A stretch of DNA of 64,000 bases from the IMG/VR virus record IMGVR_UViG_3300017735_002163, positions 1 through 64,000 of that record; one strand, given 5' to 3'. The notes under the pieces are model-generated. The model did no database searches. It was not told where the DNA came from and was given only the letters and a program-made list of their open reading frames with translations. The position numbers and the translations under genes were made by a program. Shown here piece after piece: positions 6,638-45,779 of the stretch (the stretch's first letter is position 1; each line of letters begins with the position of its first letter). Source of the stretch: a virus.

Positions 6638-6643
6638 CTATAT

Positions 6644-6672: not shown

Positions 6673-6678
6673 GTATAA

Positions 6679-7833: not shown

Positions 7834-7838
7834 ACATG

Positions 7839-7862: not shown

Positions 7863-7868
7863 TCTTAG

Positions 7869-8802: not shown

Positions 8803-8809
8803 AATGATT

Positions 8810-8837
8810 ATTATAACACCTATTCATTTAATGTCAA
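8810..8837 (-). promoter_or_regulatory. Sigma70-type early promoter
   Basis: TTGACA-16-TATAAT, 7 nt before the ATG of the DnaE-like gene. Confidence 0.75.
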
Positions 8838-14947: not shown

Positions 14948-14976
14948 TATATACCTTAGTTTGATGAGATTGTCAA
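14948..14976 (-). promoter_or_regulatory. Sigma70-type promoter for uvsW
   Basis: TTGACA-17-TATATA just before the ATG. Confidence 0.55.
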
Positions 14977-31650: not shown

Positions 31651-34464
31651 TTAACCAGTTTGACCCAATGTGTTTTGTACACGAATCGGAATGTAGATAA
31701 ATTCAACTGATTTGACAGGCTGTATAGCAATGTCAACGTGCAATTCGTTTCTATCTATTCTTGCTGGTGTATTGTTTGATGTATCACAAACTGTTAAGAA
31801 GTCAAATAGACCTCGTTGTGTTACAAGGTTTCCAAGGAAACGATCAACTAATACTTTAGCATTCTGACGTGTTACTTCATCATTTGGTTCAAATAAGAAT
31901 GGCTTAACGATATCGTCAAGTCTTTCTCTAATGTACACAACTAAACGTGCAACATTAACTCTGTCCAACGCACTTGCTGTTGGGTTAAGAGTCTTTTGAC
32001 CAAATACTGCAAGGCCTCTTCCTGGGAAGTTGCCAATTGGGTTAATTTTGTTACTGTAAAGACTGTCTCTTTGACCTTCACTTAAACTAACTGCTGTCCA
32101 CTTACCTGTTGTTGCATCAATGTAACCAACGCCGGAAGCATTTGAAACAAGACCTCTTTGGAAGCCTGCTGGTGCAAACCAAGGGAATGATACCTGGTCG
32201 TTATATGCAATAGTTCTTAAAGCAATATGTGAACCTGGTACTGCAACACTTGAACCGTCTAAGTTAGAAGCAAGACCATGTGGATAGTAAACACCCATGT
32301 AAGGTGAACTTGATAAAAGTCCCTCTTCGCCGTTTTCAAGAGCAACATTACTGTTGTTTGCCCACGCCGCTGTGCTGGATGAATCTGCCGCTAATCTAAA
32401 TGGTGCGTCTGCAACAATAAATGCTGTTTCTTTACGATCTACATTTAAAGCAATCATTTCGTCTGCTAATTCAGGATAACCTGGAGAAGCAATTAGATTG
32501 AAACGATTTGTTTCATTTCTGATTTCTGTGTTAGTGCTGATAGCCGATTGTAAACCTTGTACAACTGCTCTTCTCTGTGCTTTACGCAACATATATGGAG
32601 AACCGTCTGCTTTTTGTCCACTGTAGTCTACCCATCTGTCACCAATAAGTGTTCCGCCTACTGTGTAAGCCACGTTCCACTGCTTAACGTTACCGCCACT
32701 TGCTCTCTTATTCCATGCTAAAATATTAGTTGGATATAAGTCGGCGTTTAGTGCGTCTCCGTCAATTGATGATGATGCTGATGCTCTAAAGTCACCAAAC
32801 ACAATACCTGCGTCACTTACTTGATCAGTGTTGTCAATTGCTACCCATAAAGCAGATGCTCTTTTGTACATCTTAGGATAGTTTTCTAAGTCACTGCTGT
32901 CAACCCAAATGTCGCCGTCTACTAATGCACTTGCGCCATCTGATTGTACTGTTGGCTCACTTGCCGCAACGTTAACATCATATGCCCAAGTAGCCCATGT
33001 GCCACCGTTGTTATATAAAATGTCAATGCTGTCATCTGATACAACACTGTCATACCATAATGTACCGTCAGTTAGTGTACCTGTGATTGCTGTTGCACTT
33101 GCTTCAAAACTTAAGGCTTCCCAGTTACTGTAAGGAGTATCTGCAACAAGATTTAAATCTGTTGGATCAAATCCACCTACATCACCTGCTTTAAGTTCAA
33201 GATCGTAACCTGCACTACTTGTGATAGTGATTTTACCTGCAACGTTAGCCACTGCAACTTTATCAGAGAATGTATCTGCCGCTACTGCTGTGCTTAATGC
33301 TGAGTTAAATCCTGCAACCATTTCGTCAACACTTAGGAATCCGTCTGTGTCTACGTCAAAGTTATGGAATGTTACTGCAATTTCACCTGAAGCACCATTA
33401 ACGTCATCTCTGTCGTTAACAATTAACTTGACTGCTGTAGTACCGTTAGTATGAGCTGTAGCCGATGTTGCTGTATCACTTAATGCCGCTGTTGATTGAG
33501 CAGTAAGAGTTTGTGCGCCGTTGTGTCTTTTAATTGACACTGTAGCATCTGCACTTGAATAATCTACCCAAATGTCACCAGTTGATAATACTGGATAAGC
33601 CGCAAATGCTTGGTAAGAATGTTCTTTACCTTCGACTGTTTCTAACACCCACTGTCCTGTTGAACTGTTGTAAACTTTAACTACAACGTCTGTTCCACTG
33701 TTTGGCTTGTTAGTTTGTAAATATAAATCACCACTTGCTAATGCACCACCACCTGATTTAGTAGTAGGTACTGATGTATGAGGAGCAACTTGGAAATCTT
33801 TTGATCCACTTGCTGTGTCCCATGCTGTGGAACCAATGTGGTACCATGTGCCTGATAATTTATTATATAGTTTGATATCTGCAAGTGAGGCGCCTGCCGC
33901 ATCTTGATAGACAACACAGTAATCGCCGTCAACACCAAATGCCGCTTTAGGCTCTGAGCCTGCTGTTACATCTGCTGGTGCAGGTTGCTTAACTGTTTGC
34001 TTGACCCATGCACTACCGTTGAACTGCTTTAGTCCCCAAACTGTTGATGCTGTGTCTAACCAATACGCTCCATTGTTAGGACGTGATGTAGGTGCTGAAG
34101 ATCTTGCTTCTAATTCACCTAAGTCTACGTCTGCTCTTAAAACGTATGCTCTGTTGGCTAAGCCTAAGAAACTATAAGCGGCCATTAAACCATATTCGTT
34201 TAGTTCATGTCCGTGTAATTGAGTTCCACTGCTTGCCTTGAATGTTGGATTACCATAGTTAGTTAATAGTTCTCTCTGCGAAGTGATAAGTTTTACGTTA
34301 CCTGCTTCTGCCGATGCCGTGAATGCCGCTGTACTACCTGCTGGAGCACTTTTATCTTGTGCTGTAGCGATAATAATAAGTGGAACTGTACCTGTTCCAG
34401 CCGCCGCATAAAAGGATTCGTCAGTGACACTAATGCTAACACCTGGTGATGTTAATTCTGCCAT
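31651..34464 (-). CDS. 18: Tail sheath protein (gp18-like)
   Basis: SPGVS N-terminus, PWFAPAG..RG, INPI, FGQKTL, DRVNVARL, FEPND. Confidence 0.97.
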   Translation of the reverse strand: MAELTSPGVSISVTDESFYAAAGTGTVPLIIIATAQDKSAPAGSTAAFTASAEAGNVKLITSQRELLTNYGNPTFKASSGTQLHGHELNEYGLMAAYSFLGLANRAYVLRADVDLGELEARSSAPTSRPNNGAYWLDTASTVWGLKQFNGSAWVKQTVKQPAPADVTAGSEPKAAFGVDGDYCVVYQDAAGASLADIKLYNKLSGTWYHIGSTAWDTASGSKDFQVAPHTSVPTTKSGGGALASGDLYLQTNKPNSGTDVVVKVYNSSTGQWVLETVEGKEHSYQAFAAYPVLSTGDIWVDYSSADATVSIKRHNGAQTLTAQSTAALSDTATSATAHTNGTTAVKLIVNDRDDVNGASGEIAVTFHNFDVDTDGFLSVDEMVAGFNSALSTAVAADTFSDKVAVANVAGKITITSSAGYDLELKAGDVGGFDPTDLNLVADTPYSNWEALSFEASATAITGTLTDGTLWYDSVVSDDSIDILYNNGGTWATWAYDVNVAASEPTVQSDGASALVDGDIWVDSSDLENYPKMYKRASALWVAIDNTDQVSDAGIVFGDFRASASSSIDGDALNADLYPTNILAWNKRASGGNVKQWNVAYTVGGTLIGDRWVDYSGQKADGSPYMLRKAQRRAVVQGLQSAISTNTEIRNETNRFNLIASPGYPELADEMIALNVDRKETAFIVADAPFRLAADSSSTAAWANNSNVALENGEEGLLSSSPYMGVYYPHGLASNLDGSSVAVPGSHIALRTIAYNDQVSFPWFAPAGFQRGLVSNASGVGYIDATTGKWTAVSLSEGQRDSLYSNKINPIGNFPGRGLAVFGQKTLNPTASALDRVNVARLVVYIRERLDDIVKPFLFEPNDEVTRQNAKVLVDRFLGNLVTQRGLFDFLTVCDTSNNTPARIDRNELHVDIAIQPVKSVEFIYIPIRVQNTLGQTG

Positions 34465-34520
34465 TTTATTTCTCCCATTTTAAATTTAAAATATATGGAC
34501 AAGTATCTCTACTTGGCTAC

Positions 34521-34600
34521 ATGTATTTATGACATTTAGAAGATTTTATGGCGTTTTGAAAGGTATTGACTGATATTAGACGGTATTAGGTAGTATTATT
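34521..34600. repeat. Eight 10-bp-phased A/T tetramers over and upstream of the sheath late promoter
   Basis: atgTATTtat gacATTTaga agaTTTTatg gcgTTTTgaa aggTATTgac tgaTATTaga cggTATTagg tagTATTatt. Confidence 0.6.
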
Positions 34601-34626
34601 TTTAGCAATATAACTAAATACAACGA

Positions 34627-35286
34627 TTAAATAACTTTAAGTTCTCTGAACTCTCCAGTGTCCCAATTCCTTATATTATCCACTTGATGCTGTAAGTCTT
34701 GTAATGTACCATTGTTGTTTATGACATAATCACAAGGATAACCAGCCCAATTCCATTCACTTTCGTGAACATCTTTATAAGTAGTTTCCATTATACGTCT
34801 GCTAACAACGTTAGTTGCTGACGTAGATGCTGTTTCAAACCAGTCTGGTAATTCACCTCGTTGCACCCAAATAATTTTTCCACCCATATTTTTAATAAGA
34901 TCTAACTCATTTGTAAAACGTGCATCACTTATCACAACACAAGGTGCATCAGCACGTTGTTTCATTATGCGATATTCGAGACTGCTTAACCATATGTCTT
35001 CATTGAAATGATTACGCATTACTTCTGTGCCCATTAACTGTAATGCAAGACGTGGAGTAAAATTAGATATACCTAATTTTTTTGTCCAATACATATCTGG
35101 CGTTTCTCTGAAGTCTCTGCTTTCAATAGTATCGCCTGTGAGTAACGATCTTTCCCAACCAAATATTGCTGAACATACATCTTTAAGTGGGGCGGCAAAA
35201 CTGTCTTGCTGACAGCCTTTTTCTACAAACATTTTTGCTACGGTGTCTTTTCCTGATCCTATAAATCCGACTAAGCCTATTAGCAT
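34627..35286 (-). CDS. 1: Deoxynucleoside monophosphate kinase (gp1-like)
   Basis: GFIGSGKDT, SFAAPLK, PRLALQLMGTE, ISDARF, HESE. Confidence 0.93.
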   Translation of the reverse strand: MLIGLVGFIGSGKDTVAKMFVEKGCQQDSFAAPLKDVCSAIFGWERSLLTGDTIESRDFRETPDMYWTKKLGISNFTPRLALQLMGTEVMRNHFNEDIWLSSLEYRIMKQRADAPCVVISDARFTNELDLIKNMGGKIIWVQRGELPDWFETASTSATNVVSRRIMETTYKDVHESEWNWAGYPCDYVINNNGTLQDLQHQVDNIRNWDTGEFRELKVI

Positions 35287-35291
35287 AAATT

Positions 35292-36053
35292 TTATCCTAT
35301 AATAAATCCAAGCGGTAAATTACCTTCTTCCATATTGTGTACTGATTGAATCAGCGACTCTATTTCAGCCTGTGCTTCACCTTTGAGTGTTTCACCGTTA
35401 AGTTGTATTGCGCCGCCGGCTCCTGGTAGTCCTGAAGCATACTTGCTTCTTGCTTCACCTAACATCTGTTTAGCAGATGCTAATGTCCAGTCTGCTAACC
35501 ACTTGCCTGCATACACATCATTTAACAGCATGTGTTCTGGTATGAAATTATACACACCAACTGCTACTTCCTCATCGACTGCTACGTTGCGTAGAATCTT
35601 TAACACCTTAGTGTTCCTGTTCCAGAGGAAATTATATTCGCTACCAAAGATACGACCAATTGTTTCTTTGTATTGTGAGAATGCATCAAAAGTTGCTAAG
35701 CCTCCAATCTGGCCTGCGTTTAGTAGATACATGTTATTGAATGCTACATCAAATGGATCAAAATTACTACCGGATCCACTGTTAGTTCCAACACCTCGTC
35801 GATATAATCTGCGTACTTCCATTACCTCATTAGGTAAGGTATACTCAGTTGTGTTAGGTTGCGTTTGAATAAAGATAACACTCTCTTCTACAGCACCTGA
35901 ACTTAACTGTCTATATTTTTTTAATGCTTGATCAATCGCAACATCGTAATGTTCACGATCTAATTCCACATCAACAACGCCATCAGCAAGACGTAATTGC
36001 GTCTCTTTGATAAGCTCTTCTCTGTTGTTATATCCTATTTGGTCTTTTGGCAT
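35292..36053 (-). CDS. Neck protein (gp13-like)
   Basis: VDVEL, AKQMLGEARSKY, LPGAGG..LNG..L; start refined to the leaderless ATG. Confidence 0.8.
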   Translation of the reverse strand: MPKDQIGYNNREELIKETQLRLADGVVDVELDREHYDVAIDQALKKYRQLSSGAVEESVIFIQTQPNTTEYTLPNEVMEVRRLYRRGVGTNSGSGSNFDPFDVAFNNMYLLNAGQIGGLATFDAFSQYKETIGRIFGSEYNFLWNRNTKVLKILRNVAVDEEVAVGVYNFIPEHMLLNDVYAGKWLADWTLASAKQMLGEARSKYASGLPGAGGAIQLNGETLKGEAQAEIESLIQSVHNMEEGNLPLGFIIG

Positions 36054-36076
36054 AACACTATTTATCACTTATTTGA

Positions 36077-37210
36077 CTAAAAGGTCTTAAGAATGATTGT
36101 GTTTTCGTTAAATCTGCCATTTAATACAGTATCTGTGGTTTTGATGTCGTCGAATGCTTTTTGATACTTTGTTTTAGCATTACCCTTAAACAACTTTAGT
36201 TGCTCTGCTGGTTTACGTAATGTTTTTTGTCTACTTTTAAGAGCATCAAATTCTTGTAAGGTAGTGCCTTTAACACTGATGCCTGTTTTTAATGCTTCAA
36301 CATAGTAAATACCAATCTTTCTTGTTTTAGTATTATAGACCCAAACTTCAGTAGAATCAATTATTTCTGTTGGATTAACACTTGCAATACCTAAGTCACT
36401 GTCGTTAATTTGGTACTTTAATTTGCTGACTATCTTGTCTCTGCTTACTGCTTTTGGCTTACGAGGCTTACGACTTGCTTTACCTGTAGCAATAAATGTA
36501 TCACATGCAGTGTTTATTTTTTCATAGAACTCTAAAAATGCTTTACGTAATTTAGGTGAAAAATTGCTGTATGCTTCTTTGATTTCTTCGTCTTTCCATT
36601 CAGCAACTATCATTGCTTCTGCATATTCATTCTCATACATGTCTTTGATAATCTTTGCATGGTTGGGTTTGATTACACCACCTGCGTATGCTCTCATATC
36701 ATTGTATGGATCAAATTCTTTTAATGTTTTATTACCGTCAATTAAGTCATCTAATAAACCGTCCCATTCCCCACATAAATTTGCAACTTGCTCACGCATA
36801 CGTTCTTGTATGCTGATAACTACTTTTGGTTTCTCTTTTTCCTTTTCTTCTTTTTCTTCGAGAATTGTTAGACCACGTTCATACCATTCAACTTTACGTT
36901 TTTCAATATATGCTCTCATAACCTCTGGCATGAATCCTAACTTAGATTCTAAGTAGACTGCCGTTGCTGATGTGCTCCATGCCCAATCAGGATTTCGCAG
37001 GATAACATCAACCTCTGCCTTTTCCCAACCTGACGATTCTTTCATCCACTTGCGGAAGATTGTATTTTTTAATTTGTCAGAAATTTCAGTACGAGCAAAG
37101 TAGTCGCAATCACGGAATACCTTCTCATGCTTTTCTGGTGGGGTGTCTTTAAAATTTTTCCAGACAGGTTCTGGTGTCAAATAAATATTCTTTGCTTTTC
37201 TTTTTGCCAT
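36077..37210 (-). CDS. Early hypothetical protein
   Basis: 377 aa, basic; sigma70-like promoter TTGACA-16-TATACT at 37242-37269. Confidence 0.75.
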   Translation of the reverse strand: MAKRKAKNIYLTPEPVWKNFKDTPPEKHEKVFRDCDYFARTEISDKLKNTIFRKWMKESSGWEKAEVDVILRNPDWAWSTSATAVYLESKLGFMPEVMRAYIEKRKVEWYERGLTILEEKEEKEKEKPKVVISIQERMREQVANLCGEWDGLLDDLIDGNKTLKEFDPYNDMRAYAGGVIKPNHAKIIKDMYENEYAEAMIVAEWKDEEIKEAYSNFSPKLRKAFLEFYEKINTACDTFIATGKASRKPRKPKAVSRDKIVSKLKYQINDSDLGIASVNPTEIIDSTEVWVYNTKTRKIGIYYVEALKTGISVKGTTLQEFDALKSRQKTLRKPAEQLKLFKGNAKTKYQKAFDDIKTTDTVLNGRFNENTIILKTF

Positions 37211-37255
37211 ATCCTTTACTACTCTTACAATAAACTGCGTTAGTATAACACATCA

Positions 37256-39139
37256 TTATGCTTTGTCAATGATGTTACTTAAATAACCTCTTCTGCGTCT
37301 AAACAAAAGATTGTCCACATGTTCTTTCATGTTTTCCGGGAACATATTTGTTCTGTCACTTACTATATAAGTCGACGGGGTCATGTCAAGTTCAATTTTT
37401 TGGTCTTGTACGTAATCCCAGAGGTTAGTAAAGGTATTTATAGATTCTGAGTTAAAACGTGTGTTTTTGAATTGTTTTATACGTTTTATAGTTATATTTC
37501 TATAATCTGCAAGGATTTGCTCGGGGGTGTCAGGATATTGTTGTTGTGTGTAATCGCTAACACATTGTATAGCATATTCTAATAAGTCTTCGTTTTGCAA
37601 TGTAGACATCAAACTGATAATAATTTGCCAACTGTCAAATTTGTAGTCTTTGCTTTTGAGTGAAAAGTATCCGGTTCTGTGCCATTTGTGTATGCCGTCT
37701 CTGATTCTATCTTCCAGTTGGATAAACACAGGGTTGCGTTTGAACTCTAAAAACAATCCTTCATAAAATTCTTTGTAAGTGGTATTACCCTGTTTAACCA
37801 ATGCTCTCGATATTATATCGGATATACCTTGTGTGTGCAAACCTGTTATGTACCATGCTGTGATAAATGCTTCTATGATATCTGATTCAGACATAGTGCT
37901 GGTACTTTTTATAATAGGCACGTCTTCGTCAGGCACCTTTGAGTTGAAGTCATTGGTTTCGTAAAACATGTCATGTGCAATAAATGTTTCCAATTGATAC
38001 TTTTCAATATCCTGTTGCATTGGTGCATTTTCTAACATGTTTAACAGGAACACGTCGAGCCCACTGTGTAGTCCTGCATCAAGCACATCATAATAAACAT
38101 TCTTAATGGTGTCAAGTGTTTCGGTTGGTAATCCAACAATTATTTCTGTGAGAATAGAGATTTGATTTTTTATTCCTAAGTCTGTGATGTCTCGTATATC
38201 ATTAATACCCATGTTGGTACGTTTAATTGCTTCTAATACGTTTGGGGTAGTTGTTTGTAAACTTAAAGTAAATCCACTTCCTACTCCTGCTTCTTGAAAC
38301 TTTCTAATGATGCCAAACACATCTGCATTACTGTTTTTAGCATAACTCACACTGAGACCTGTTGGAACTGAATACAGTTTTTTAGACTCTACTATTTTAT
38401 CTGCTATGAGATTATCTCTTTCTCTGAACACACCGTAGTTTGCATTTGTGAGATTAATGAAAGGTAGACCGTTTTTGGCAAACCATTCTATTTCAGCAAA
38501 CACTCGATCTAATTTAAATTTAATAATTTTACTGTTAGTTGCACTACCCCAATCACAAAATGTACATCTATAAGGACAACCTCTGTCTGTCTCTAAAGTA
38601 GGCACCCATTCTATATCTGGGTAATCTGTGAGGAAGTGATCGAACACACCATCCAGATAAGGACTGGGTGTTTCTAATTTTTTAAGACGTTCAACAGTGT
38701 GTGTTCGTGGTAGTTCTTTACCGTCTAAAATCATTAATAGCAATTCTTGTACACATACTTCACCCTCACCAATACAAATGGTGTCTATGTAAGGGTGTTC
38801 TATAAAGTAACTTGGACTTGTATGTGCAACTTCGGGGCCACCAATTAAACTTATAACAGCAGGATTAATTTCTTTGACACGTTTTGCTAATTCATAAGTG
38901 TAGTTTTTATTCCACACATATAAACTGTACAACACTACATCACACTTGGCTAACTGCTGTGCTGTTTCTTCAACTGGGTCTCGTCTAAATGCCCAAACGT
39001 CTGCTGAAAAATGTTCTCTTATTTCTTCATTTTGTCTTGCATAGGCCCATAGCACACCAGAAGTGTAGGGCAAGTAGAAAGAATTTAGTATCTTGGGACC
39101 AGTTTGAAAATTTATTTGTGCTAACCCAAGAGAGAACAC
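37256..39139 (-). CDS. Cobalamin-binding radical SAM enzyme
   Basis: N-terminal B12 domain (SLYVWN, IGGPEV, IGEGE) and ETDRGCPYRCTFCDW CxxxCxxC. Confidence 0.92.
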   Translation of the reverse strand: MFSLGLAQINFQTGPKILNSFYLPYTSGVLWAYARQNEEIREHFSADVWAFRRDPVEETAQQLAKCDVVLYSLYVWNKNYTYELAKRVKEINPAVISLIGGPEVAHTSPSYFIEHPYIDTICIGEGEVCVQELLLMILDGKELPRTHTVERLKKLETPSPYLDGVFDHFLTDYPDIEWVPTLETDRGCPYRCTFCDWGSATNSKIIKFKLDRVFAEIEWFAKNGLPFINLTNANYGVFRERDNLIADKIVESKKLYSVPTGLSVSYAKNSNADVFGIIRKFQEAGVGSGFTLSLQTTTPNVLEAIKRTNMGINDIRDITDLGIKNQISILTEIIVGLPTETLDTIKNVYYDVLDAGLHSGLDVFLLNMLENAPMQQDIEKYQLETFIAHDMFYETNDFNSKVPDEDVPIIKSTSTMSESDIIEAFITAWYITGLHTQGISDIISRALVKQGNTTYKEFYEGLFLEFKRNPVFIQLEDRIRDGIHKWHRTGYFSLKSKDYKFDSWQIIISLMSTLQNEDLLEYAIQCVSDYTQQQYPDTPEQILADYRNITIKRIKQFKNTRFNSESINTFTNLWDYVQDQKIELDMTPSTYIVSDRTNMFPENMKEHVDNLLFRRRRGYLSNIIDKA

Positions 39140-40095
39140 TACTTTTGCCTGTTATGTCTTGTATCGTCCTTGAATGGCAAGTTATTTTCTACAATGTTTT
39201 TCCAATCAGCAATAGTCTGATCGAGGCCATCACTAAGGGCAACTTTGGGTTTCCACCCTGTCATCTTGGTTAACTTATCATTTGAACTGTTTAACAGATA
39301 TATTTCGCCTGGACGATCTGGCTTTGTGTGCCAAAACACTTCGCCTGTCCAACCAATCTTATCTGCAATTGTTTGTACATAATCTCTGATGCGTACTGCA
39401 TTGTTAGGACCAAGACAGAAGATTTCGTTAATGCATTTTTCTGGGTTTGCAATTACTGTTTCCCATGCATCAAGTAAATCATCAATGTAAATAAAGTTTC
39501 TGTAAGGTTCGCCGTATCCTAAATTAATCTCATTTGGATTTTTCAACATTTGATAAATGATTTGCTCTGTTACAAAGAAGTTATTGTCCTTTCTACCATA
39601 TGCATTTGTTTGCCTAATTATAGTATAAGGCATTTCATAACAACGTCCTGCATACTCGAGATATTTTTCACATCCGTATTTTGCAACGGCATATGGTGCA
39701 TTTGGATTTGGTTGTGTTTGTTCATCATACGCAGGAATTGTTCCATCGAAGCCCTGCTTGATAACATCACTGATAGGTTGCCAACCGTATACTTCCATTG
39801 TACTTGCAAACACAAAGTTTTTAAAATCTGGTAAGTCTCTGCAACTCTCAATTAAGTTTACTGTGCCAACATAGTTAATTTCACTAAAAGTAGTTTGTTC
39901 GTAAAAACTTTGCTCTACTTCTGTTCTTGCGGCAAGATGGACAACTATTTCAGGATTTGCTTCCTTTACTTGTCTCTTAACCTCATCGTGATCTCTGAGA
40001 TCTGCACGAAGAAAAGTTAGTTCATGATTTGGTGATAGTCTTTCGACCATGTGTTGTCCAATGAAGCCATCGGAGCCTGTAATAAAGATTCTCAT
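39139..40095 (-). CDS. NAD-dependent NDP-sugar dehydratase/epimerase (extended SDR)
   Basis: TGSDGFIG, HLAA, ASTMEVYG, YAVAK. Confidence 0.93.
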   Translation of the reverse strand: MRIFITGSDGFIGQHMVERLSPNHELTFLRADLRDHDEVKRQVKEANPEIVVHLAARTEVEQSFYEQTTFSEINYVGTVNLIESCRDLPDFKNFVFASTMEVYGWQPISDVIKQGFDGTIPAYDEQTQPNPNAPYAVAKYGCEKYLEYAGRCYEMPYTIIRQTNAYGRKDNNFFVTEQIIYQMLKNPNEINLGYGEPYRNFIYIDDLLDAWETVIANPEKCINEIFCLGPNNAVRIRDYVQTIADKIGWTGEVFWHTKPDRPGEIYLLNSSNDKLTKMTGWKPKVALSDGLDQTIADWKNIVENNLPFKDDTRHNRQK

Positions 40096-40634
40096 ATTTT
40101 TAACCTATAATCTATTAGTCCTGTTATTTGCATTGTATACCTTGGTATATAACCTAAGTTTGCAACCGTGTGTATTACGCCAGGGAAAATAAAAGTATAA
40201 TCCCCTTTGTTATAGTTATCAAAAGACTCGTCATCTATATTTAACCAATGTCCGAGTTGATGATCTTGCAAGAATATATTTATTCTAACAAGTTCTAAAT
40301 TTTCTAAAGTATCTTGATTATCTTTCAAGTATTGCTTTAGTCTATACATCGAATCCACATGTGGTGGAATAAATGTTCCTGTTGTTAATTTGTTTAAAGT
40401 AATTTGTTTGTGTTGTACCCAATCAAACTTATTACAAACATCCATAGCCCACTGTGGGCAGTCTTCTCCAAAGCACTGATATAAATGTGCAGAACCTATT
40501 GGATATGTTGGTTCAGGTACATCTAAAGTTTTCCATAAACCGTTTGCTTCATCGGTGTCTGTGCTTTCAGGGAAAACAGTATTGTTAAGCATTTCGTCGG
40601 TGACAAAATCAATATTAACATTACCTTTAATCAC
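40092..40634 (-). CDS. 2OG-Fe(II) oxygenase/cupin-like protein
   Basis: PPHVD...IHTVANLG..PRYTMQITG (HxD...H...R). Confidence 0.75.
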   Translation of the reverse strand: MIKGNVNIDFVTDEMLNNTVFPESTDTDEANGLWKTLDVPEPTYPIGSAHLYQCFGEDCPQWAMDVCNKFDWVQHKQITLNKLTTGTFIPPHVDSMYRLKQYLKDNQDTLENLELVRINIFLQDHQLGHWLNIDDESFDNYNKGDYTFIFPGVIHTVANLGYIPRYTMQITGLIDYRLKI

Positions 40635-41679
40635 AATAACTCTCTAAGCCTCCTCTTCTTCGAAGGTCGAGTGTAGCACAATGTATGCCTCCACTTAAAG
40701 TCATTGCATGTCTAAATTGAACTGGAACACAATCAATATTATGTTTTTCAAGTTCTCTCATTAATGGCTCTTGCCCTGAATCACATATAACTGTGTTAGG
40801 ATCAACACTCAATATGTTCATGCCAATATATGGTGAACAAGGATCTGGATAACCTTTAATTGCATTACCTCTGGTAACACAATCATCAAAGTATATCTTA
40901 TCCCATGACTTAAACATTTCAGGACAGTTGTCAGGTGTTACCCTTGCACTGTTTAATAAAACCAAGCCTGGTCTTAGTGGTATAATAGTGCTGTCAAAAT
41001 GTGCAAAACTATATAGTTCACTGTAATGTAATTTATATCCCATTGGTTCAAGAAAACGTTTTAACCACTTATAGCCTTTCATGTTACCTGAATTACTTAC
41101 TTGGTATAATAAATCTTTGCCTACTCTAACTATGTTAGGTGCATCAAATATGATTTCGTGATCTAATAATGTAGGTTTGCCAATTATATCTTCAAATTGA
41201 TACAAGTCATCATGTAACTTAGGTCTCGGTGCTTGTAACCACATGGCACCATCTTCGAATGCTTCATACATGATGTCTTCGTATAACCTGTTTTCAAAAT
41301 ATCTTGCTCGAACAGGACTTGGTGTTTCAATCAACATGTCACCTAACGGCAATATGCAATCACGTGGACACCAACTATACCAGCCTTTGCTTTTCCAACC
41401 TTGGCCTATGTCGTATTCTACGTTTTCCCAGTCGATAATTTTAGGTCTATGCACTTTAACACCCATTTTTGTGAGTGTGTTTGCAAGACCATCTGCGTCT
41501 TCATTGGCTTCGTCTATTACCCATTGTGGGTAAGGACCTGCCGGAGGTAATTCTTCGGGAGTTAATGTTGCATATCCAAAACTATTAGCACTTCTGTCTG
41601 TTGCTATTCTGCTGTGATGGGCATGTCCAACAATAATTTCTTCTAACGGGTCCCAGTCATTGTGTGTGTTAACTATCAT
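40627..41679 (-). CDS. Amidinotransferase (glycine/inosamine amidinotransferase family)
   Basis: NDWDPLEEIIVG, CPRD, FDA, HFDST, GGIHCATLD (Asp-His-Cys triad). Confidence 0.93.
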   Translation of the reverse strand: MIVNTHNDWDPLEEIIVGHAHHSRIATDRSANSFGYATLTPEELPPAGPYPQWVIDEANEDADGLANTLTKMGVKVHRPKIIDWENVEYDIGQGWKSKGWYSWCPRDCILPLGDMLIETPSPVRARYFENRLYEDIMYEAFEDGAMWLQAPRPKLHDDLYQFEDIIGKPTLLDHEIIFDAPNIVRVGKDLLYQVSNSGNMKGYKWLKRFLEPMGYKLHYSELYSFAHFDSTIIPLRPGLVLLNSARVTPDNCPEMFKSWDKIYFDDCVTRGNAIKGYPDPCSPYIGMNILSVDPNTVICDSGQEPLMRELEKHNIDCVPVQFRHAMTLSGGIHCATLDLRRRGGLESYCD

Positions 41680-41691
41680 GCTACTATTTAT

Positions 41692-42567
41692 TTAACAATC
41701 GCTCATAAAGTCTGAAATACAGACTCTAAAATTACCAGGAACGCCTCTGGAATACATGTAATGTCTTTCTTCGTCACCTAAACCAAATAACAGGGTATCG
41801 GTGTATACTAAATTTTCTGCTTCACACACTCTTTCATATTCTTTGCCGTGTTTATTCCAATTCCAATCAGGATCAAAGTGTTTCATAAAGTGTACACCTA
41901 AGTTCATGCTTGTTTTATTTTGGTAACCAACATCGTTGATCATTGTAACACCGTCATCAGTTGGTTTTCTTGAGAATCGAATACCAACTCTGTGTGTTTC
42001 AAGAGGGAAAAAAGGCTTGCTAAGACTGAATACAACTTCTTCTATGCATGGATATTTGTCTAAGTCTATGTGTATGTTCTTACATATACCCCAATATGCT
42101 AAGTCTAAGCACACAGGTATATCTAATGTACAACATATACGCATCATGCGTTCAAATTCAGGGTGCATACAACCAAAGTCACTAAATGGTGCTGATATAA
42201 TTAATGCATTCAGTCCTCTACCGACAAATCTGTCAGAGTTTACATCATCTATGTAAGCAAAATCTACATGTTTACCTTGGCATGCATGATATTGGAAGTC
42301 GCCAAGTAATGCATTTATTTGTCTTGTTTTACAATGGCGCAAAATAAAATTATCAAAGGCCTGACTTGTGCCTTGTGTATAATGTGCTGTGGGAAAGTTA
42401 TCAAGACCTTCTATAGATTTCATGTCAGTGTAATTAATCCACTCTCTCCATGTGTCTTCATATTCAGACATTGTTACTTCTGCAGGGGTAGTGTTCTCAT
42501 AAAAATCTAAAAGTTCTTTACTGCGTACCGGCCTTGCGCCTTTTTGGTATAACTTGTGTTGCATCAT
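41692..42567 (-). CDS. PLP-dependent (fold type I) enzyme, aminotransferase/decarboxylase-like
   Basis: GTSQAF, ISAPFS..G, LDLAY, FSLSK (PLP lysine), RVG. Confidence 0.8.
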   Translation of the reverse strand: MMQHKLYQKGARPVRSKELLDFYENTTPAEVTMSEYEDTWREWINYTDMKSIEGLDNFPTAHYTQGTSQAFDNFILRHCKTRQINALLGDFQYHACQGKHVDFAYIDDVNSDRFVGRGLNALIISAPFSDFGCMHPEFERMMRICCTLDIPVCLDLAYWGICKNIHIDLDKYPCIEEVVFSLSKPFFPLETHRVGIRFSRKPTDDGVTMINDVGYQNKTSMNLGVHFMKHFDPDWNWNKHGKEYERVCEAENLVYTDTLLFGLGDEERHYMYSRGVPGNFRVCISDFMSDC

Positions 42568-42572
42568 ACCAA

Positions 42573-42616
42573 TATTTATCAGTACTATTTTTGCATGGCG
42601 AAAGTTCTGATAAATA
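42573..42616. promoter_or_regulatory. Divergent late promoters for the enzyme cluster (-) and neck/lysozyme block (+)
   Basis: tatttatc 42573-42580 and gataaata 42609-42616, each 5 nt from an ATG. Confidence 0.78.
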
Positions 42617-42621
42617 GTGTT

Positions 42622-43680
42622 ATGCCTAAATTAAGTTTATGGAATCCGGTTAAAACACATGACTTCAACTTTATCGATAGAATAGTTGGAGAGCATATCT
42701 ATGCCGGAGGAACAGGTGTCCACATACACAAATATATGGGGATTACCGATAGCGATACAACAAATGACCCGACCAGACCAGGTGGAGTAAACACCAATGA
42801 ATTGTTTATACAAGATTTGTTATTTTTGGAAAACAGAGATAGAAAATACAGTAAAGACATTTTTGAACTGCGTGGGCAATATAACTTAGGCGATAATGAT
42901 GCATTTGATCTAACACAGTTTGGTGCCTTTCTTGCAAACGATACACTGTTTATGAATTTTCATACAGAAAGTATGGTAGATGCAATAGGAAGAAAACTAA
43001 TGCCGGGTGATGTTTTAGAATTACCACATTTACGTGATGATTTATTACTGGGCAGTGACGAAGCAATAAATAGATTTTATGTAGTGCAAGAAGGTTCAAG
43101 ACCTGCAGAAGGATATGATCCACGTTGGTGGTCACACTTGTGGAGAGTAAAACTTGGTCCTATAACAGACAGTCAAGAATACAGAGATATACTTGGCACT
43201 GGCGAAGAAGAAGGCGACTTGCGTAACTTAATGAGTAAGTATGCAGATGAAATTATCATCAATGATGCAATACTTACCCAAGCAGAAAGCGATGTGCCAA
43301 GCGATCCGCAGGTTAGAGATACTTCTCATTTATATTATGATGAAGCATCAGGTAAACCTCGTATCGATTTACAATTTGGGGCGGACGGTAATACTCCACC
43401 CAATGGAGCCACTCTGGTAGGCAGTGGCGAAACATTCCCAGTTACAAATATTGCTAACGGTTCATACTTTTTACGTACAGACTTTACACCTAACAGGTTG
43501 TTTAGAAAAGACGGAACAAGATGGATTAAAATTAGTGACGATAATCAACGCTCGTGGGCGGCGGCAAATAGAGCATTAACATCATTTATAAATAACGATT
43601 CAAGTTTTGTTGAAGATGGCGAAATAAGAAACGAAAAAACAAATTTAAGTAAGGTTATTAAACCACGAACAGACGATTAG
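42622..43680 (+). CDS. Neck/head-closure protein (gp14-like)
   Basis: QDLLFLENRDRKY, DLTQFG, PGDVLELP; start refined. Confidence 0.7.
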   Translation: MPKLSLWNPVKTHDFNFIDRIVGEHIYAGGTGVHIHKYMGITDSDTTNDPTRPGGVNTNELFIQDLLFLENRDRKYSKDIFELRGQYNLGDNDAFDLTQFGAFLANDTLFMNFHTESMVDAIGRKLMPGDVLELPHLRDDLLLGSDEAINRFYVVQEGSRPAEGYDPRWWSHLWRVKLGPITDSQEYRDILGTGEEEGDLRNLMSKYADEIIINDAILTQAESDVPSDPQVRDTSHLYYDEASGKPRIDLQFGADGNTPPNGATLVGSGETFPVTNIANGSYFLRTDFTPNRLFRKDGTRWIKISDDNQRSWAAANRALTSFINNDSSFVEDGEIRNEKTNLSKVIKPRTDD

Positions 43681-43688
43681 GAGAAAAA

Positions 43689-44159
43689 ATGTTTTTTGGA
43701 AAAGATACAAAATTAGATAGGGAGGCTGTTTTCGAACAGTTAAAAATAGACGAAGGAGTAGTAAATGAAATTTACCACGATCATCTCGGATATCCGACTT
43801 TTGGTGTGGGTCACTTGGTATTGGAGTCAGATCCTGAGCACGGAGCAGAAATTGGCACTCCGGTTTCAGAAGAAAGAGTACGAGAGTGCTTTGAAAAAGA
43901 CCTCGACACCGCAATTAGCGAGTGTGAATTGCTATACGAAGCAGGGGTATTTGGAGATTTACCAGACGAAGTCCAGCAGATCCTGGTCAATATGATGTTT
44001 AATATGGGCAGGACAAGACTAAGTAAGTTTAAGAAAATGCATGCCGGAATACTTGAAGGGGATTGGAAGGAAGCGGCCAAGGAAGGCAGAGATTCAAGAT
44101 GGCATAAACAAGTTACTAATCGTGCTGAAAGATTAATGGAAAGATTAGAGAACGTATAA
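43689..44159 (+). CDS. T4-type lysozyme (GH24)
   Basis: DEG...YHDHLGYPTFGVGH (E-x8-D-x5-T), NMMFNMG, SRWHKQVTNRA. Confidence 0.93.
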   Translation: MFFGKDTKLDREAVFEQLKIDEGVVNEIYHDHLGYPTFGVGHLVLESDPEHGAEIGTPVSEERVRECFEKDLDTAISECELLYEAGVFGDLPDEVQQILVNMMFNMGRTRLSKFKKMHAGILEGDWKEAAKEGRDSRWHKQVTNRAERLMERLENV

Positions 44160-44342
44160 ATGAGGAGAGGGTCAAAAGTTCGTGACCCAATCGAATATAT
44201 CAACGTAAGAATTGATATGCTTGTTAAAGAACGAACTAAAAACGATAACGAAACTGCACACATGGTAATAGATAAATGTGTAGGTGAGTTAAGTTATGTG
44301 TTAGAACTGTTAGAGAGAAATAAATGTCAGACATCAGAGTAA
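44160..44342 (+). CDS. Small hypothetical protein
   Basis: 60 aa, abuts the lysozyme stop. Confidence 0.6.
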   Translation: MRRGSKVRDPIEYINVRIDMLVKERTKNDNETAHMVIDKCVGELSYVLELLERNKCQTSE

Positions 44343-44446
44343 AAGAACCTCAATTTCCAGAAGAGGGCGAGTATACTTTAGATACGTCTGGCAATCTTGT
44401 ACAGTATGTTAACGGACAATGGATAAAAGCAGACAATGGCAGGTAA
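44324..44446 (+). CDS. 40-aa hypothetical protein (MSDIRVKEPQFPEEGEY...NGQWIKADNGR)
   Basis: Fills the gap between 44342 and 44436 and overlaps both neighbours. Confidence 0.5.
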   Translation: MSDIRVKEPQFPEEGEYTLDTSGNLVQYVNGQWIKADNGR

Positions 44447-45779
44447 AAATTTAGATTACTGGTACGATGAACAGATAAAACGTTATCTAATTCAACTTGT
44501 CAGAGTATTCTCAAACTTTCAAGTAAAAGAAAATACCGAAAATGGTGTTCACTACAATAGAGTTCCTGCACGTTATGGTGACATGAGTAGAATGGTTGCA
44601 CAAATATTGCGTAACAATTCTGAGAATGCAATTAATAATGCACCTCAAATTACTATAGGAATACAAAGCATACAGCCAGCAAGAGATAGAACTGCTGAAC
44701 CGTATCATGTAGACACCACGCAAGTTGCTGAACGTGACTGGAACAAAGAAGACAAACGTTATACAAGTGATCAAGGTAACTTGTACACTACACAACGTTA
44801 TATGCCAGTACCGTATAACTTAAATATACAAGTTGATATATGGACCACTAACACTGATACAAAATTACAAATTTTAGAACAAGTATTTGTATTATTTAAC
44901 CCAAGTATACAACTGCAATCAAATGATAATCCTCTTGACTGGACCAGTGTGTTTGAAGTTGAGATGACTGACATACAGTGGAGCAGTAGAGGTATACCTG
45001 CAGGCGTAGATGAGCAATTAGACATAGCAACATTAACATTTGCTGTGCCAATTTGGATATCACCACCTGCAAAAGTACAAAGACAAAAAATTATACAACG
45101 AATAGTAAATGATATTTACAAAACAACAGACATATCAAACTTAGGGTACAGCGAAGACTATCATGACTTCTTTAGTCAAGTACCAGATGATGCTGTTGTG
45201 GTTGTTGCCCCTGGGGATTACCAAATTCAAATAGCATCTGGTAGTGCAACATTGATAAACTCAGCAGGTGTAGGTCAAAAATGGGCAGACATCATTGAAA
45301 TGCAAGGTGAGTTATCTAATACCAGTAGGATAGAATTAAATTTAGAAGACAATATACAGGACAGAACCAAATTAGTTATAGGTAGCATTTCTAAAAATCC
45401 AATAGCAGAAGACACATTGATATTTAATTTAGATGCAGACACGTTGCCCACTGACACTATTGCTAATGTAGATAAAATTATAGACCCAAGAGCAAGTAGA
45501 CCCGGTGATGTACTGTTAGGTTCAGCACTTGGGCAAAGATATTTACTGTCAGAAGATGTCAGTATCGATTATGTTGAATGGGGCATAGAAGCAAAAGCAA
45601 ACGACATAGTAGAATACGACGGTGCAAAATGGATTGTTGCATTTGACAGTTCAGCAGTTGACAGCGAAGCATTTGTTACTAATGCATACACAAATGCACA
45701 ATTCAAATGGACTGGTACACAATGGATTAGCAGTTGGCAAGGAACATATAATCCAGGGTACTGGAGGTTGATACTTTGA
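44436..45779 (+). CDS. Tail terminator/sheath stabiliser (gp15-like) with C-terminal extension
   Basis: YDEQIKRY, VPARYG, PVPYNL, QILEQV...FNP, WISPP. Confidence 0.8.
   Translation: MAGKNLDYWYDEQIKRYLIQLVRVFSNFQVKENTENGVHYNRVPARYGDMSRMVAQILRNNSENAINNAPQITIGIQSIQPARDRTAEPYHVDTTQVAERDWNKEDKRYTSDQGNLYTTQRYMPVPYNLNIQVDIWTTNTDTKLQILEQVFVLFNPSIQLQSNDNPLDWTSVFEVEMTDIQWSSRGIPAGVDEQLDIATLTFAVPIWISPPAKVQRQKIIQRIVNDIYKTTDISNLGYSEDYHDFFSQVPDDAVVVVAPGDYQIQIASGSATLINSAGVGQKWADIIEMQGELSNTSRIELNLEDNIQDRTKLVIGSISKNPIAEDTLIFNLDADTLPTDTIANVDKIIDPRASRPGDVLLGSALGQRYLLSEDVSIDYVEWGIEAKANDIVEYDGAKWIVAFDSSAVDSEAFVTNAYTNAQFKWTGTQWISSWQGTYNPGYWRLIL

Follow-up and report, generated by a model that had tools for sequence, protein, structure and literature searches.

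A conserved five-gene operon of a marine giant phage as a candidate pathway to a guanidino-bearing, sugar-like unit

Within the window, the 64,000-nucleotide stretch of viral DNA that we analyzed, five co-oriented minus-strand genes (g1 to g5) occupy positions 37256-42567 (Table 1). The operon is situated among neck genes, and its source is an uncultured marine giant phage whose nearest known phages, by tail sheath, are jumbo phages such as PA5oct. A spacer of 12 nt separates g1 from g2, and the genes that follow overlap by 8 nt (g2/g3), 4 nt (g3/g4) and 1 nt (g4/g5); therefore, the initial annotation was right that stops and starts overlap in the last four genes. It had also named five enzyme classes and their catalytic motifs (SLSK; Asp-His-Cys; HxD..H; YxxxK; CxxxCxxC with a B12 domain). 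Profile, PDB and fold comparisons agreed with all five classes, and every one of the motifs was located.

Table 1. Genes and promoter-like motifs of the operon, with the basis of each assignment.
Feature	Coordinates	Strand	Basis
g1, 291 aa, truncated fold-type-I PLP enzyme, class I/II aminotransferase type (predicted)	41692..42567	-	predicted fold, family profile matches
g2, 350 aa, L-arginine-dependent StrB1-type amidinotransferase	40627..41679	-	PDB 1bwd match, triad D179/H227/C334
g3, 180 aa, minimal Fe(II)/2-oxoglutarate oxygenase (H92, D94, H155, R165) (predicted)	40092..40634	-	predicted fold, conserved residues
g4, 318 aa, NAD-dependent extended SDR, nucleotide-sugar epimerase/dehydratase family	39139..40095	-	PF16363, PF01370
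g5, 627 aa, cobalamin-dependent (class B) radical SAM, TokK/CysS/KedN5 type	37256..39139	-	PF02310, PF04055
ATAAATA late-type promoter-like motif	42573..42579	-	5 nt upstream of g1 ATG
Second ATAAATA motif	41685..41691	-	inside 12-nt g1-g2 spacer, 5 nt upstream of g2 ATG

The claim that late motifs precede the first two genes was borne out by the ATAAATA ahead of g1 and of g2. The window holds 38 copies of this motif, of which 16 lie no more than 40 nt upstream of ORF starts, versus 0.8 expected by area, in a placement test that used 65 non-overlapping ORF starts. The full T4 octamer, TATAAATA, showed no overall enrichment (8 observed versus 6.98 expected). Contigs at least 95% alike covered the operon in 4 of 4 marine metatranscriptome libraries examined; as contigs, these are no proof of transcription, nor of its strand or timing. 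Single metatranscriptome contigs span the g5/g4/g3, g4/g3/g2 and g2/g1 junctions.

The g2 protein aligned end to end with StrB1 (PDB 1bwd; E 1.9e-88, residues 2-348 against 3-346), which is 348 aa long, and the Asp-His-Cys triads were in register. The g2 triad lies in FDAPN (D179), AHFDST (H227) and HCATLD (C334) and is invariant among 16 homologues. Further PDB matches were SxtG (1.4e-51), HsvA (4.9e-51) and AGAT (about 1e-48); the StrB1 match scored 300 bits, versus 165-179 for the glycine, polyamine or saxitoxin enzymes. StrB1-type genes of Streptomyces genomes are 43-45% identical to g2. Median identity of g2 across 62 related loci was 81%, and in the same comparison the neighboring 374-aa virion protein, gp15-like gene and 377-aa gene gave 71%, 64% and 51%, respectively.

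Matches of g4 to PF16363 (1.9e-40) and PF01370 (5.1e-40) were accompanied by 47 PDB relatives and by the motifs GSDGFIG (7-13), T99-M-E101 and YAVAK (135-139; Y135xxxK139). Its GxxGxxG, T-x-E, YxxxK, R-x-x-N-x-Y-G and G-x-G-x-x-x-R-N-F blocks, which presumably bind the nucleotide-sugar, align with nucleotide-sugar enzymes and are at least 98% conserved among 39 distinct sequences. The third-best PDB match is 6vlo, a putative dTDP-glucose 4,6-dehydratase that we take to be the Mimivirus R141 protein. The Asp of RmlB-type enzymes is missing from g4, though Thr-x-Glu and YxxxK are kept; its scores against the LegB and dTDP-glucose-dehydratase models (1e-39/1e-37) fall under their cut-offs, and no NCBIfam equivalog cut-off was reached. 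The NDP-sugar enzyme class of the initial annotation holds, and its more specific "dehydratase" is best read as tentative.

The g1 protein itself had no Pfam match and no PDB sequence match, and PF00155 was matched by 43 of the 110 members of its family. By Foldseek, the g1 AF2 model (pLDDT 95.7) found HisC, Pad-1 and C-S lyase at E about 1e-10, and VIA gave Z scores of 22.2-19.6 to 50 class-I PLP enzymes. The SLSK motif (181-184) contains the Schiff-base Lys184, and S181, S183, K184, D155 and R193 are each at least 90% conserved in the family. As judged from its model, g1 falls in the class I/II aminotransferase fold group (HisC, C-S lyases, MalY and the Arg-acting MppP/GntC types). The substrates of these class I/II neighbors are amino acids, histidinol phosphate or arginine, and a DegT-type sugar aminotransferase was not detectable. 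To our knowledge, the DegT family holds all known nucleotide-sugar aminotransferases. The PLP enzyme of the initial annotation was retained, and the ketosugar transamination ascribed to it is something that we only infer, because g1 does not appear as DegT-type.

Similarly, g3 had neither a Pfam match nor a PDB sequence match. Its AF2 model (pLDDT 92.9) gave VIA Z scores over residues 1-180 of 13.2 to PiuC, 12.7 to proline 3-hydroxylase and 10.4 to AspH, and is predicted to fold as a minimal Fe/2OG oxygenase. The HVD at 92-94 is followed by H155, and H92, D94 and H155 are invariant among 48 sequences. Most relatives carry a tandem g3 paralogue.

The radical SAM motif of g5 is CPYRCTFC (188-195), and its B12-binding domain scored 41.1 bits against PF02310 (cut-off 32.1). 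With these two elements and more than 440 aligned residues, g5 resembles its nearest solved relatives, TokK (7kdx, 1.4e-72) and CysS (9n1b, 1.2e-45); its best NCBIfam model is KedN5 (8.8e-65), at 219 bits against a cut-off of 700. TokK/ThnK (carbapenem side chain), CysS (cystobactamid) and KedN5 are cobalamin radical SAM iterative C-methylases. The initial annotation had named a B12-radical SAM enzyme, a class that usually methylates unactivated carbon or phosphorus; the class stood, and P-methylase models scored far lower than the C-methylase type.

Related IMG/VR contigs carry the operon at the same genomic place. Gene order is constant across the 43 loci that are covered in full from g1 to the downstream 377-aa gene, and g2 and g4 are present in all 43, g3 in 41 and g5 in 19. 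The gene set thus co-occurs in related phages, with g5 as an accessory member, and, since the order recurs, the grouping is not due to chance. At 40 of 67 judgeable loci the operon is joined by a family of 367-484 aa, possibly a transferase. No glycosyltransferase had been visible in the window, and none was recognized beyond it: NTP_transferase, GT2, GT1 and DegT were absent at cut-off from the contig itself (G000, 83 kb, CheckV completeness 23%) and a relative (G001, 250 kb, 66%), both fragments. A thymidylate-synthase-like hydroxymethylase and TGT/DpdA were not found in these fragmentary records either. This absence is all that bears on the preference, in the initial annotation, for decoration of virion proteins over DNA modification. 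We found no functional study of the operon in print.

The nearest characterized pathway is the streptidine branch of streptomycin biosynthesis, with which the operon appears to share, beyond StrB1, a logic of oxidation, amination and amidination. However, the phage PLP enzyme is class I/II-like, whereas StsC is of the DegT type; the phage operon, a late one, showed neither a kinase nor an inositol enzyme. A g1- or g3-family gene was absent within 10 kb in all 77 cellular StrB1-type loci examined, and the assembly is therefore phage-specific rather than a piece of host metabolism.

Viral nucleotide-sugar pathways (the Mimivirus R141 dehydratase; chlorovirus and mycobacteriophage virion glycosylation) also place an extended SDR beside an aminating enzyme, but differ in that no glycosyltransferase was recognized here. 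We know of no guanidino sugar from the Mimivirus, chlorovirus or mycobacteriophage systems. Campylobacter phages CP220/CPt10 have an amidinotransferase 24-30% identical to g2. A gene of roughly 170 aa precedes it, and on its flanks lie radical SAM genes together with two nucleotide-diphospho-sugar transferase-like genes. Unlike our operon, the modules of these phages lack an SDR, a g1 homologue (tblastn) and a B12 radical SAM homologue, and have many small radical SAM enzymes instead. In Synechococcus phage S-SCSM2R, ORF305-310 put a 2OG-oxygenase (29% to g3) next to an amidinotransferase (37% to g2), and a PLP enzyme and radical SAM lie close by; however, this is an accessory island rather than a neck-gene locus, annotated glycosyltransferases surround it, and the PLP enzyme in it carries an AHBA-synthase (DegT) type annotation. 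The accessible text of the S-SCSM2R report reads ORF305-310 as antibiotic synthesis and describes no experiments on these genes. The divergent phage versions (L094, L095 and CP220) combine g2 with SPASM radical SAM, AspH-like and TauD enzymes and lack the SDR; therefore, the amidinotransferase does not always work beside a sugar enzyme.

The reading that we favor, tentatively and somewhat short of calling it probable, is of a biosynthetic operon that the clade conserves and that the marine jumbo myophage expresses late to make a guanidino-bearing sugar-type or aminocyclitol-type unit. From the enzyme classes, we infer every step of the following order. A nucleotide- or phosphate-activated hexose would be oxidized or dehydrated by g4 to a keto intermediate, whose ketone g1 would turn into an amine; g2 would then pass the amidino group of L-arginine via Cys334 to this amine, releasing ornithine and forming the guanidino group. 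The product or a precursor might be hydroxylated by g3, joined in most relatives by its tandem paralogue, and g5, where present, could put at least one methyl on an unactivated carbon. We count for this pathway the enzyme identities, the linkage of the genes across loci, selection as read from the higher identity of g2 than of its neighbors, the late motifs and metatranscriptome contigs, and the amidinotransferases beside glycosyltransferases in S-SCSM2R and CP220. Against it we count the fold neighbors of g1, which is not detectably DegT, the negative transferase searches of the two fragments, the SDR-less divergent versions, the g4 scores below every equivalog cut-off and the limits of metatranscriptome contigs as proof.

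It is possible, though unlikely, that the product stays unattached as an aminoglycoside-like or polycationic metabolite, which might target ribosomes, exclude competing phages (superinfection exclusion) or serve the very large packaged genome as a counter-ion. The StrB1-type amidinotransferase, SDR, PLP enzyme and B12 radical SAM mirror aminoglycoside/aminocyclitol logic, no transferase was recognized in either the contig or the 250-kb record of the relative, and the late motif and head/neck-gene position would fit a packaged cation. HsvA, a solved g2 relative among the PDB matches, amidinates polyamines, but g2 is much nearer StrB1. The accessible S-SCSM2R text calls the homologues "antibiotic synthesis genes"; however, export, resistance or kinase genes were not seen in our operon, and the possible transferase family often joins it. 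We consider it rather improbable that the enzymes instead modify an amino acid, peptide or protein, e.g. a virion protein, with hydroxylation, methylation at carbon and the turning of an amine side chain into a guanidine as possible changes. The accessible S-SCSM2R text places another amidinotransferase and a 2OG oxygenase in purified virions, the fold neighbors of g1 work on amino acids (MppP, RohP, GntC and Plu4 on arginine), and among those of g3 are hydroxylases of the prolyl, aspartyl and lysyl types. SPASM radical SAM and Asp_Arg_Hydrox enzymes also abound in related and divergent clusters, which adjoin tail-fibre-like genes (Mosig; Mtd_N in L095). Against this, g4 is a typical nucleotide-sugar-type SDR present in every fully covered locus and g2 is nearest the inosamine-phosphate enzyme; we also know of no amidinotransferase of the g2 family that acts on proteins.

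Hypermodification of the phage DNA, e.g. by a cationic or sugar-type base adduct, appears very unlikely. Guanine is modified in Campylobacter phages whose module likewise pairs an amidinotransferase with radical SAM, and a hint of 7-deazapurine chemistry in the clade comes from a single G001 locus that brings together FolE, GalE, a phosphoribosyltransferase and a QueE-like radical SAM. However, some 120 kb separate that locus from the operon, the G000 fragment does not contain it, the searches of both fragments for the hydroxymethylase and TGT/DpdA were negative, and the late motif would be atypical for replication-coupled modification. We give hardly any weight to unrelated auxiliary metabolic genes that separately tune host arginine/guanidinoacetate/creatine and sugar metabolism: the accessible part of a lake survey lists viral "glycine amidinotransferase" (K00613) as an AMG in a table, and creatine-pathway AMGs are discussed in the accessible text of work on ocean viruses, but the reading frames overlap, their order is fixed, they co-occur in 43 of 43 loci, and g2 resembles StrB1, not AGAT.

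Returning to the guanidino-bearing sugar-type or aminocyclitol-type unit, the phage may well make a positively charged, guanidino sugar-like compound late in infection, and enzymes with genes elsewhere would most likely transfer it to a macromolecule, be it a protein of the virion or the cell envelope.

The ORF coordinates bore out exactly the cluster of five minus-strand genes that the initial annotation had placed at 37256-42567, and all of the motifs that it had named were present in the five proteins. Its description of the last four genes as joined by overlapping stops and starts also held, with overlaps of 8 nt (g2/g3), 4 nt (g3/g4) and 1 nt (g4/g5); the g1-g2 spacer is 12 nt. One flank of the operon, on the opposite strand, encodes a virion structural protein of 374 aa, a lysozyme-like protein, a sheath stabiliser resembling gp15 and a NUDIX protein. 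The other flank, on the operon's own strand, encodes a 377-aa protein without assigned function, followed by a head-tail adaptor, a dNMP kinase and the tail sheath. The NUDIX hydrolase (140 aa; window 45776-46198, plus strand) adjoins the gp15-like gene and has a median identity of 80% across the 65 related loci that carry it; nucleotide sugars are substrates of some NUDIX enzymes.

Coordinates of the operon genes and of ATAAATA motifs close to start codons, with median identities of relatives to the window's proteins (hits covering at least 80% of the query)
Feature	Position	Strand	Length or location	Median identity
g1, PLP enzyme	41692-42567	-	291 aa	59%
g2, amidinotransferase	40627-41679	-	350 aa	81%
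g3, Fe/2OG oxygenase	40092-40634	-	180 aa	43%
g4, extended SDR	39139-40095	-	318 aa	71%
g5, B12 radical SAM	37256-39139	-	627 aa	42%
374-aa virion protein				71%
gp15-like				64%
377-aa gene				51%
ATAAATA motif starts	48902, 42579, 41691, 28635, 27719, 26011, 19412	-	5-6 nt before start codon	
ATAAATA motif start	7856	+	5-6 nt before start codon	

The 83,376-b IMG/VR virus record, of which the window is the first 64 kb, is rated 23% complete (CheckV). The closest cultured relatives of its tail sheath were Pseudomonas jumbo phage PA5oct and phages close to it (51% identity), followed by 349-440-kb phages of Escherichia, Vibrio and Salicola, and a related contig, G001, is 250,519 b long and rated 66% complete. 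Because of these sheath relatives and the size of the related contig, the source is considered an uncultured marine jumbo myophage and not a usual T4-type cyanophage. A nucleotide search with the whole operon against 50,697 phage records gave no match. Elsewhere in the window, a minus-strand gene (46833-48890) encodes a 685-aa CHASE2 sensor fused to an adenylate/guanylate cyclase domain (PF05226, 2.1e-32; PF00211, 1.4e-16).

The amidinotransferase g2 aligned end to end with StrB1 (1bwd; E 1.9e-88, 300 bits), and its scores against other solved enzymes were 179 bits for SxtG, 177 for HsvA and 165-171 for AGAT. The catalytic cysteine, C334 in GGIHCATLD, aligns with GGFHCATLD of 1bwd, and D179 (FDAPN) and H227 (AHFDST) are in register with the Asp and His of the 1bwd triad; all three residues were invariant in 16 homologues. 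The Pfam arginine-deiminase model matched the C-terminus only, below threshold (17.5 vs 22.8 bits). These alignments indicate that g2 is a real amidinotransferase of the StrB1 subtype. Its family is well represented in metagenomes (927 proteins at E <=1e-20 among 1,796 candidates), one relative lies on a 365-kb contig, and relatives were found in 16 cultured phage records (12 Campylobacter, 2 Enterococcus, 1 Synechococcus and 1 marine virus).

The g4 protein has the GSDGFIG motif and the Y135-K139 pair of extended SDRs and matched PF16363 (139.8 bits) and PF01370 (137.8 bits), both at ~1e-40. Among NCBIfam models, those for dehydratases (LegB, 133 bits vs a cut-off of 475; dTDP-glucose 4,6-dehydratase, 128 vs 365) outscored GalE, no equivalog cut-off was reached, and the top PDB match was an epimerase, 4zrm. 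Across 39 distinct orthologues, the blocks TG.dGFIG, FASTMEVYG, PYAVAKY, IRQTNaYGR and GEPYRNFI.IDD were conserved. For the dehydratase label of the initial annotation, the relevant feature is the acid/base pair that follows the catalytic Thr, which is Asp-Glu in RmlB and Ser-Glu in GMD. In g4, T99-M100-E101 is conserved, so that the Glu is there and the RmlB-type Asp is missing, and this Thr-x-Glu together with YxxxK is the arrangement of GMD/UXS-type dehydratases and decarboxylases. By these matches, g4 is assigned as an extended SDR of the nucleotide-sugar epimerase/dehydratase family.

The g5 protein carries CPYRCTFC at residues 188-195 and an N-terminal B12-binding domain (PF02310, 41.1 bits, cut-off 32.1), together with a radical SAM core (PF04055, 40.8 bits, cut-off 29.5). 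Its closest solved relatives were TokK (E 1.4e-72) and CysS (1.2e-45). The top NCBIfam model was KedN5 (219.1 bits); the cut-off of 700 was not reached, and we therefore regard g5 as a relative of the TokK/CysS/KedN5 clade and not as a KedN5-family member. Models of P-methylases scored 32-54 bits, and cultured phages gave a single weak match. Among defence-system models, the sole match in the operon was that of g5 to the PADLOC candidate PDC-M51A (5.6e-25), which probably reflects generic B12 radical SAM likeness. The genome that encodes this cobalamin-dependent enzyme also encodes a 532-aa protein with a TonB-dependent-receptor Plug domain (window 14956-16554, minus strand; PF07715, 1.2e-08).

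Because neither g1 nor g3 had a sequence-level match in Pfam or PDB sequence searches, their structures were predicted. For g1, a search found 392 representative clusters, and an alignment of 110 relatives from the 150 listed was used as input. The resulting model (pLDDT 95.7) matched histidinol-phosphate aminotransferases, Pad-1 and C-S lyases in Foldseek at E ~1e-10, and VIA aligned residues 1-291 with fifty class-I PLP enzymes at Z 22.2-19.6, a tie within ~2.6 Z units. K184, S181, S183, D155 and R193 were at least 90% conserved among the 110 sequences, and g1 has the fold, the SxSK Schiff-base Lys and the pyridine-N Asp of fold-type I PLP enzymes. PF00155 matched 43 of the 110 relatives, but not the window's own g1. 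The DegT model PF01041 matched none of the 110 and nothing in G001 or in the window's 83-kb record (G000), and DegT/DnrJ/EryC1 sugar aminotransferases were absent among the listed Foldseek and VIA matches. By its predicted fold, g1 is thus a shortened class I/II aminotransferase-type enzyme; whether it catalyses transamination, beta-lyase cleavage, decarboxylation or oxidation cannot be read from such a model. The g1 family comprises 348 metagenomic proteins at E <=0.001 among 508 candidates, and tblastn against cultured phages gave only a partial match, to a 'putative aminotransferase' of Pelagibacter phage Mosig.

For g3, which no Pfam model matched, the prediction (pLDDT 92.9) gave Fe/2OG oxygenases over the full length as the top VIA matches, namely PiuC (Z 13.2) and proline 3-hydroxylase (Z 12.7), followed by prolyl hydroxylases (Z 11-12) and AspH (Z 10.4). 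The comparison with 9qn0 gave Z 13.2 and an rmsd of 3.2 A over 153 aligned residues, and that with 1e5r Z 12.7 and 2.8 A over 140; in Foldseek, Fe/2OG oxygenases were mixed with small cupins. The metal triad H92, D94 and H155 was invariant in 48 sequences, so that g3 combines the fold and the triad of Fe(II)/2OG oxygenases. Ten residues after H155, R165 was kept in all orthologues shown and replaced in a tandem paralogue, and R117 was invariant in both.

To examine variation, IMG/VR was scanned with g1, which gave 104 confirmed stretches, and the best 80 loci were kept. Of these, 43 contain both g1 and the 377-aa gene and make up the fully covered set; all 43 interval sequences are distinct. 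Across this set, g2 and g4 occur in 43/43 loci each and g3 in 41/43, and g5, an accessory gene, occurs in 19/43. Only three of the 43 loci share the window's exact layout, g1-g2-g3-g4-g5 without extras. In 35 of the 43, the tandem paralogue of g3 (~164 aa, ~30% identical) lies between g2 and g3, and a 74-81-aa ORF follows g4 or g5 in most related loci. Some loci have an extra 210-aa protein with a faint Stf0-sulfotransferase match (E 0.18) or an extra 198-211-aa protein with no family assigned. At 81%, g2 is at least as conserved as the adjacent structural proteins that were compared over their full length (64-77%). A 3,736-b contig in the assembly of Synechococcus lacustris str. Tous carries g1, g2 (~82% identity), both oxygenase paralogues and g4; it either represents phage DNA in that culture or hints at the host.

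A family of 367-484-aa proteins with an invariant E-K...K-x-P block is absent from the window and recurs elsewhere. Of the 67 loci in which both slots could be judged, 40 have it, either directly upstream of g1 or in the g1-g2 interval. G001 carries five paralogues, the 83-kb G000 fragment has none, and a divergent cluster (L094) contains two copies. In one locus without it (L009), two SPASM radical SAM genes lie between the 374-aa structural gene and g1. The nearest named clusters of the family in the ESM Atlas were GT10, with values of just 0.81 and 0.79. Pfam searches up to E 1 had no relevant match, a PDB profile search was empty, tblastn against phages gave no match, and a profile search of a 5.8-billion-protein set found 23 proteins, none with a Pfam domain. 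The hhalign comparison with the bona fide GT10 protein of phage S-SCSM2R (PF00852, 1.6e-14) gave a probability of 0.5%; the genome search with PF00852 gave no match even in control genomes and is void. The language-model Atlas thus provides a lead, and a lead only, to a GT10-type glycosyltransferase.

Genes for nucleotidyltransferases, GT1, GT2 and DegT were not found in 333 kb of the clade (G000 and G001, both fragments). G001 has a true GalE (301 bits vs a cut-off of 262), which lies ~120 kb from its operon. At that locus (G001:C1:188000-204000; ORFs 5054-9600, minus strand), a weak GT4/GT1-like ORF, GalE, a phosphoribosyltransferase, FolE and a QueE-like radical SAM are encoded, the weak GT4-like ORF being beside GalE; it may represent a 7-deazapurine nucleotide pathway. 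TGT/DpdA was not found in the G001 record, and nothing corresponding to the locus is present in the 83-kb G000 fragment. One 12-kb stretch (G001:C1:164846-176728) accounts for seven of the 12 radical SAM matches in G001; it resembles the radical-SAM-rich Campylobacter phages and contains a paralogue of the 367-484-aa family (173096-173341).

Related modules were found in distant phages. In S-SCSM2R, a g3 relative directly precedes an amidinotransferase, and the genes around them include glycosyltransferases, a PLP enzyme and a radical SAM; in the accessible text of the paper, the homologues are only annotated, as 'antibiotic synthesis genes', and another amidinotransferase is included in the virion proteome (PMC12801897). 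The amidinotransferase of CP220 follows a 173-aa ORF and is surrounded by five radical SAM and two GT-A-like genes, a module that its authors, in the accessible part of their report, remarked on and to which they assigned no function. Pelagibacter phage Mosig has its partial g1 homologue among AspH-like, TauD, MoaA-like and DegT-like genes, beside tail-fibre genes. Two divergent loci lie on phage-like contigs binned with bacterial MAGs. L094 combines a g1 relative, SPASM radical SAMs, AspH-like genes, g2 and a g3-like gene; L095 combines a SPASM radical SAM, an AspH-like gene, g2, TauD, a g5 relative and a g3-like gene, followed by a Mtd_N tail-fibre-type gene. The partner enzymes around the phage amidinotransferase thus include both sugar-type and peptide-type ones and vary from locus to locus.

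As a control for a captured bacterial cluster, we analyzed the best 80 genome-contig loci with g2 relatives. Three were phage-like contigs binned with Synechococcus, Verrucomicrobiales and Puniceispirillum assemblies. In the 77 cellular StrB1-type loci (36-45% identical to g2), profile searches found no g1- or g3-family gene within 10 kb, a g4-like SDR in six and a g5-like gene in one. Capture of a bacterial cluster was rejected on this basis, and since the cellular loci are without the g1 and g3 families, the combination is best explained as a phage invention built around the amidinotransferase. None of the closest systems, i.e., the StrB1/streptidine branch, the TokK/CysS methylases, the CP220 and S-SCSM2R modules and virus-encoded sugar pathways, contains the operon's enzyme set. 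The literature searched yielded neither a functional study of such a phage operon nor a paper testing a phage amidinotransferase.

ATAAATA, which corresponds to the core of T4-type late promoters, precedes the start codons of both g1 and g2 by 5 nt. Of its 38 copies in the window, 16 fall within 40 nt upstream of ORF starts, vs 0.8 expected, and in eight genes it stands only 5-6 nt before the start codon. At T4 late promoters, transcription begins a few bases past the motif; if this phage does likewise, the late mRNAs of the eight genes would be leaderless or nearly so. In 35000-44500, neither sigma-70-like sites (29 vs 35.2 in shuffles) nor terminators (6 vs 5.3) were enriched.

Half or more of the operon's sampled words were present in 16 of the 24 listed seawater runs. 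At least 0.90 of them was held by 14 DNA rows, three of which are possibly the source sample; near-identical operon DNA occurred in runs of 18 studies, and six rows are recorded as RNA. The four best RNA libraries, from four studies, were compared with window 34000-46000. Contigs at least 95% alike were found in all four (37, 16, 21 and 15 records), with depth in 29, 29, 25 and 16 of 30 bins. The intervals 39164-40821, 38722-40342 and 41262-42020 are each spanned by a single contig, so that every gene junction is crossed; such contigs attest that the sequence is present in RNA libraries but do not reveal strand, level or whether there is one transcript. The two thinner of these libraries (X17 and X18) left parts of the operon without cover, which is not evidence of silence. 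Given the near-identical DNA in many seawater studies and the metatranscriptome contigs, the operon is abundant and probably expressed.

A contig end at 34503-34506, which is 39-42 nt upstream of the start codon of the sheath gene, recurs in each of the four libraries, and in two of them this end carries adapter sequence; it (window 34464-34506) is likely the 5' end of the sheath mRNA. Contigs of three studies start at 42635-42644, just beyond the divergent g1/virion-gene junction, and those from the g1 side stop at 42517/42547, a comparison made among RNA libraries only. The shared ends hint that the contigs derive from RNA. Because the GTG listed as the start of the virion gene for the 374-aa protein (42556) overlaps that of g1, its true start is probably farther downstream.

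The data establish the enzyme classes of g1-g5, the close linkage of the genes and their conservation; from these, we hypothesize that g1-g5 make a guanidino sugar-type unit. The SDR g4 would introduce a keto group on an activated sugar-type scaffold, g1 would aminate it, g2 would use arginine to turn the amine into a guanidine, g3, with or without its paralogue, would hydroxylate the product or a precursor, and g5, where present, would carry out C-methylation. This reading is favoured because a nucleotide-sugar-type SDR is always present and g2 is nearest to an inosamine-phosphate enzyme. It is weakened because g1 belongs to the 'wrong' family of PLP enzymes and because no nucleotidyltransferase, GT1, GT2 or DegT was found in the 333 kb, and we put its chance at slightly below even. 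To our knowledge, no guanidino sugar or other amidinotransferase product made by a phage has been described.

The same enzymes could instead modify a protein or peptide, as the peptide-type partners around related amidinotransferases would allow, or could hypermodify DNA; the only data against the latter are that thymidylate-synthase-like and TGT genes were not found in G000 and G001, both of which are incomplete. They could also be unlinked AMGs, an improbable reading that the overlapping genes and the presence of g2 and g4 in 43/43 loci speak against. Alternatively, the product might be a free cationic or aminoglycoside-like metabolite. In its most specific form, an unlikely one in our judgment, widespread marine jumbo phages would make an aminoglycoside-like polycationic guanidino metabolite late in infection, as a counter-ion packed with the genome or for release to block ribosomes or superinfecting phages; if true, this would be the first phage-encoded antibiotic-type pathway with a direct role in the infection cycle.

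Every enzyme class in the operon is already known and their combination is not. Fixed among neck genes, it unites an amidinotransferase of the streptomycin type with a non-canonical PLP enzyme, minimal 2OG oxygenases, an SDR of the sugar type and, optionally, a B12 methylase resembling TokK. Our analysis contributes the assignment of g1 and g3 by fold, the recognition of g5 as accessory, the recurrent 367-484-aa family, the bacterial-locus control and the metatranscriptome cover. Work on the product would also provide new enzymes, among them a PLP partner of the class-I type and a B12 C-methylase from a phage, and the identity of its product would tell apart virion decoration by giant phages, remodelling of the host surface, DNA modification and the production of bioactive small molecules.
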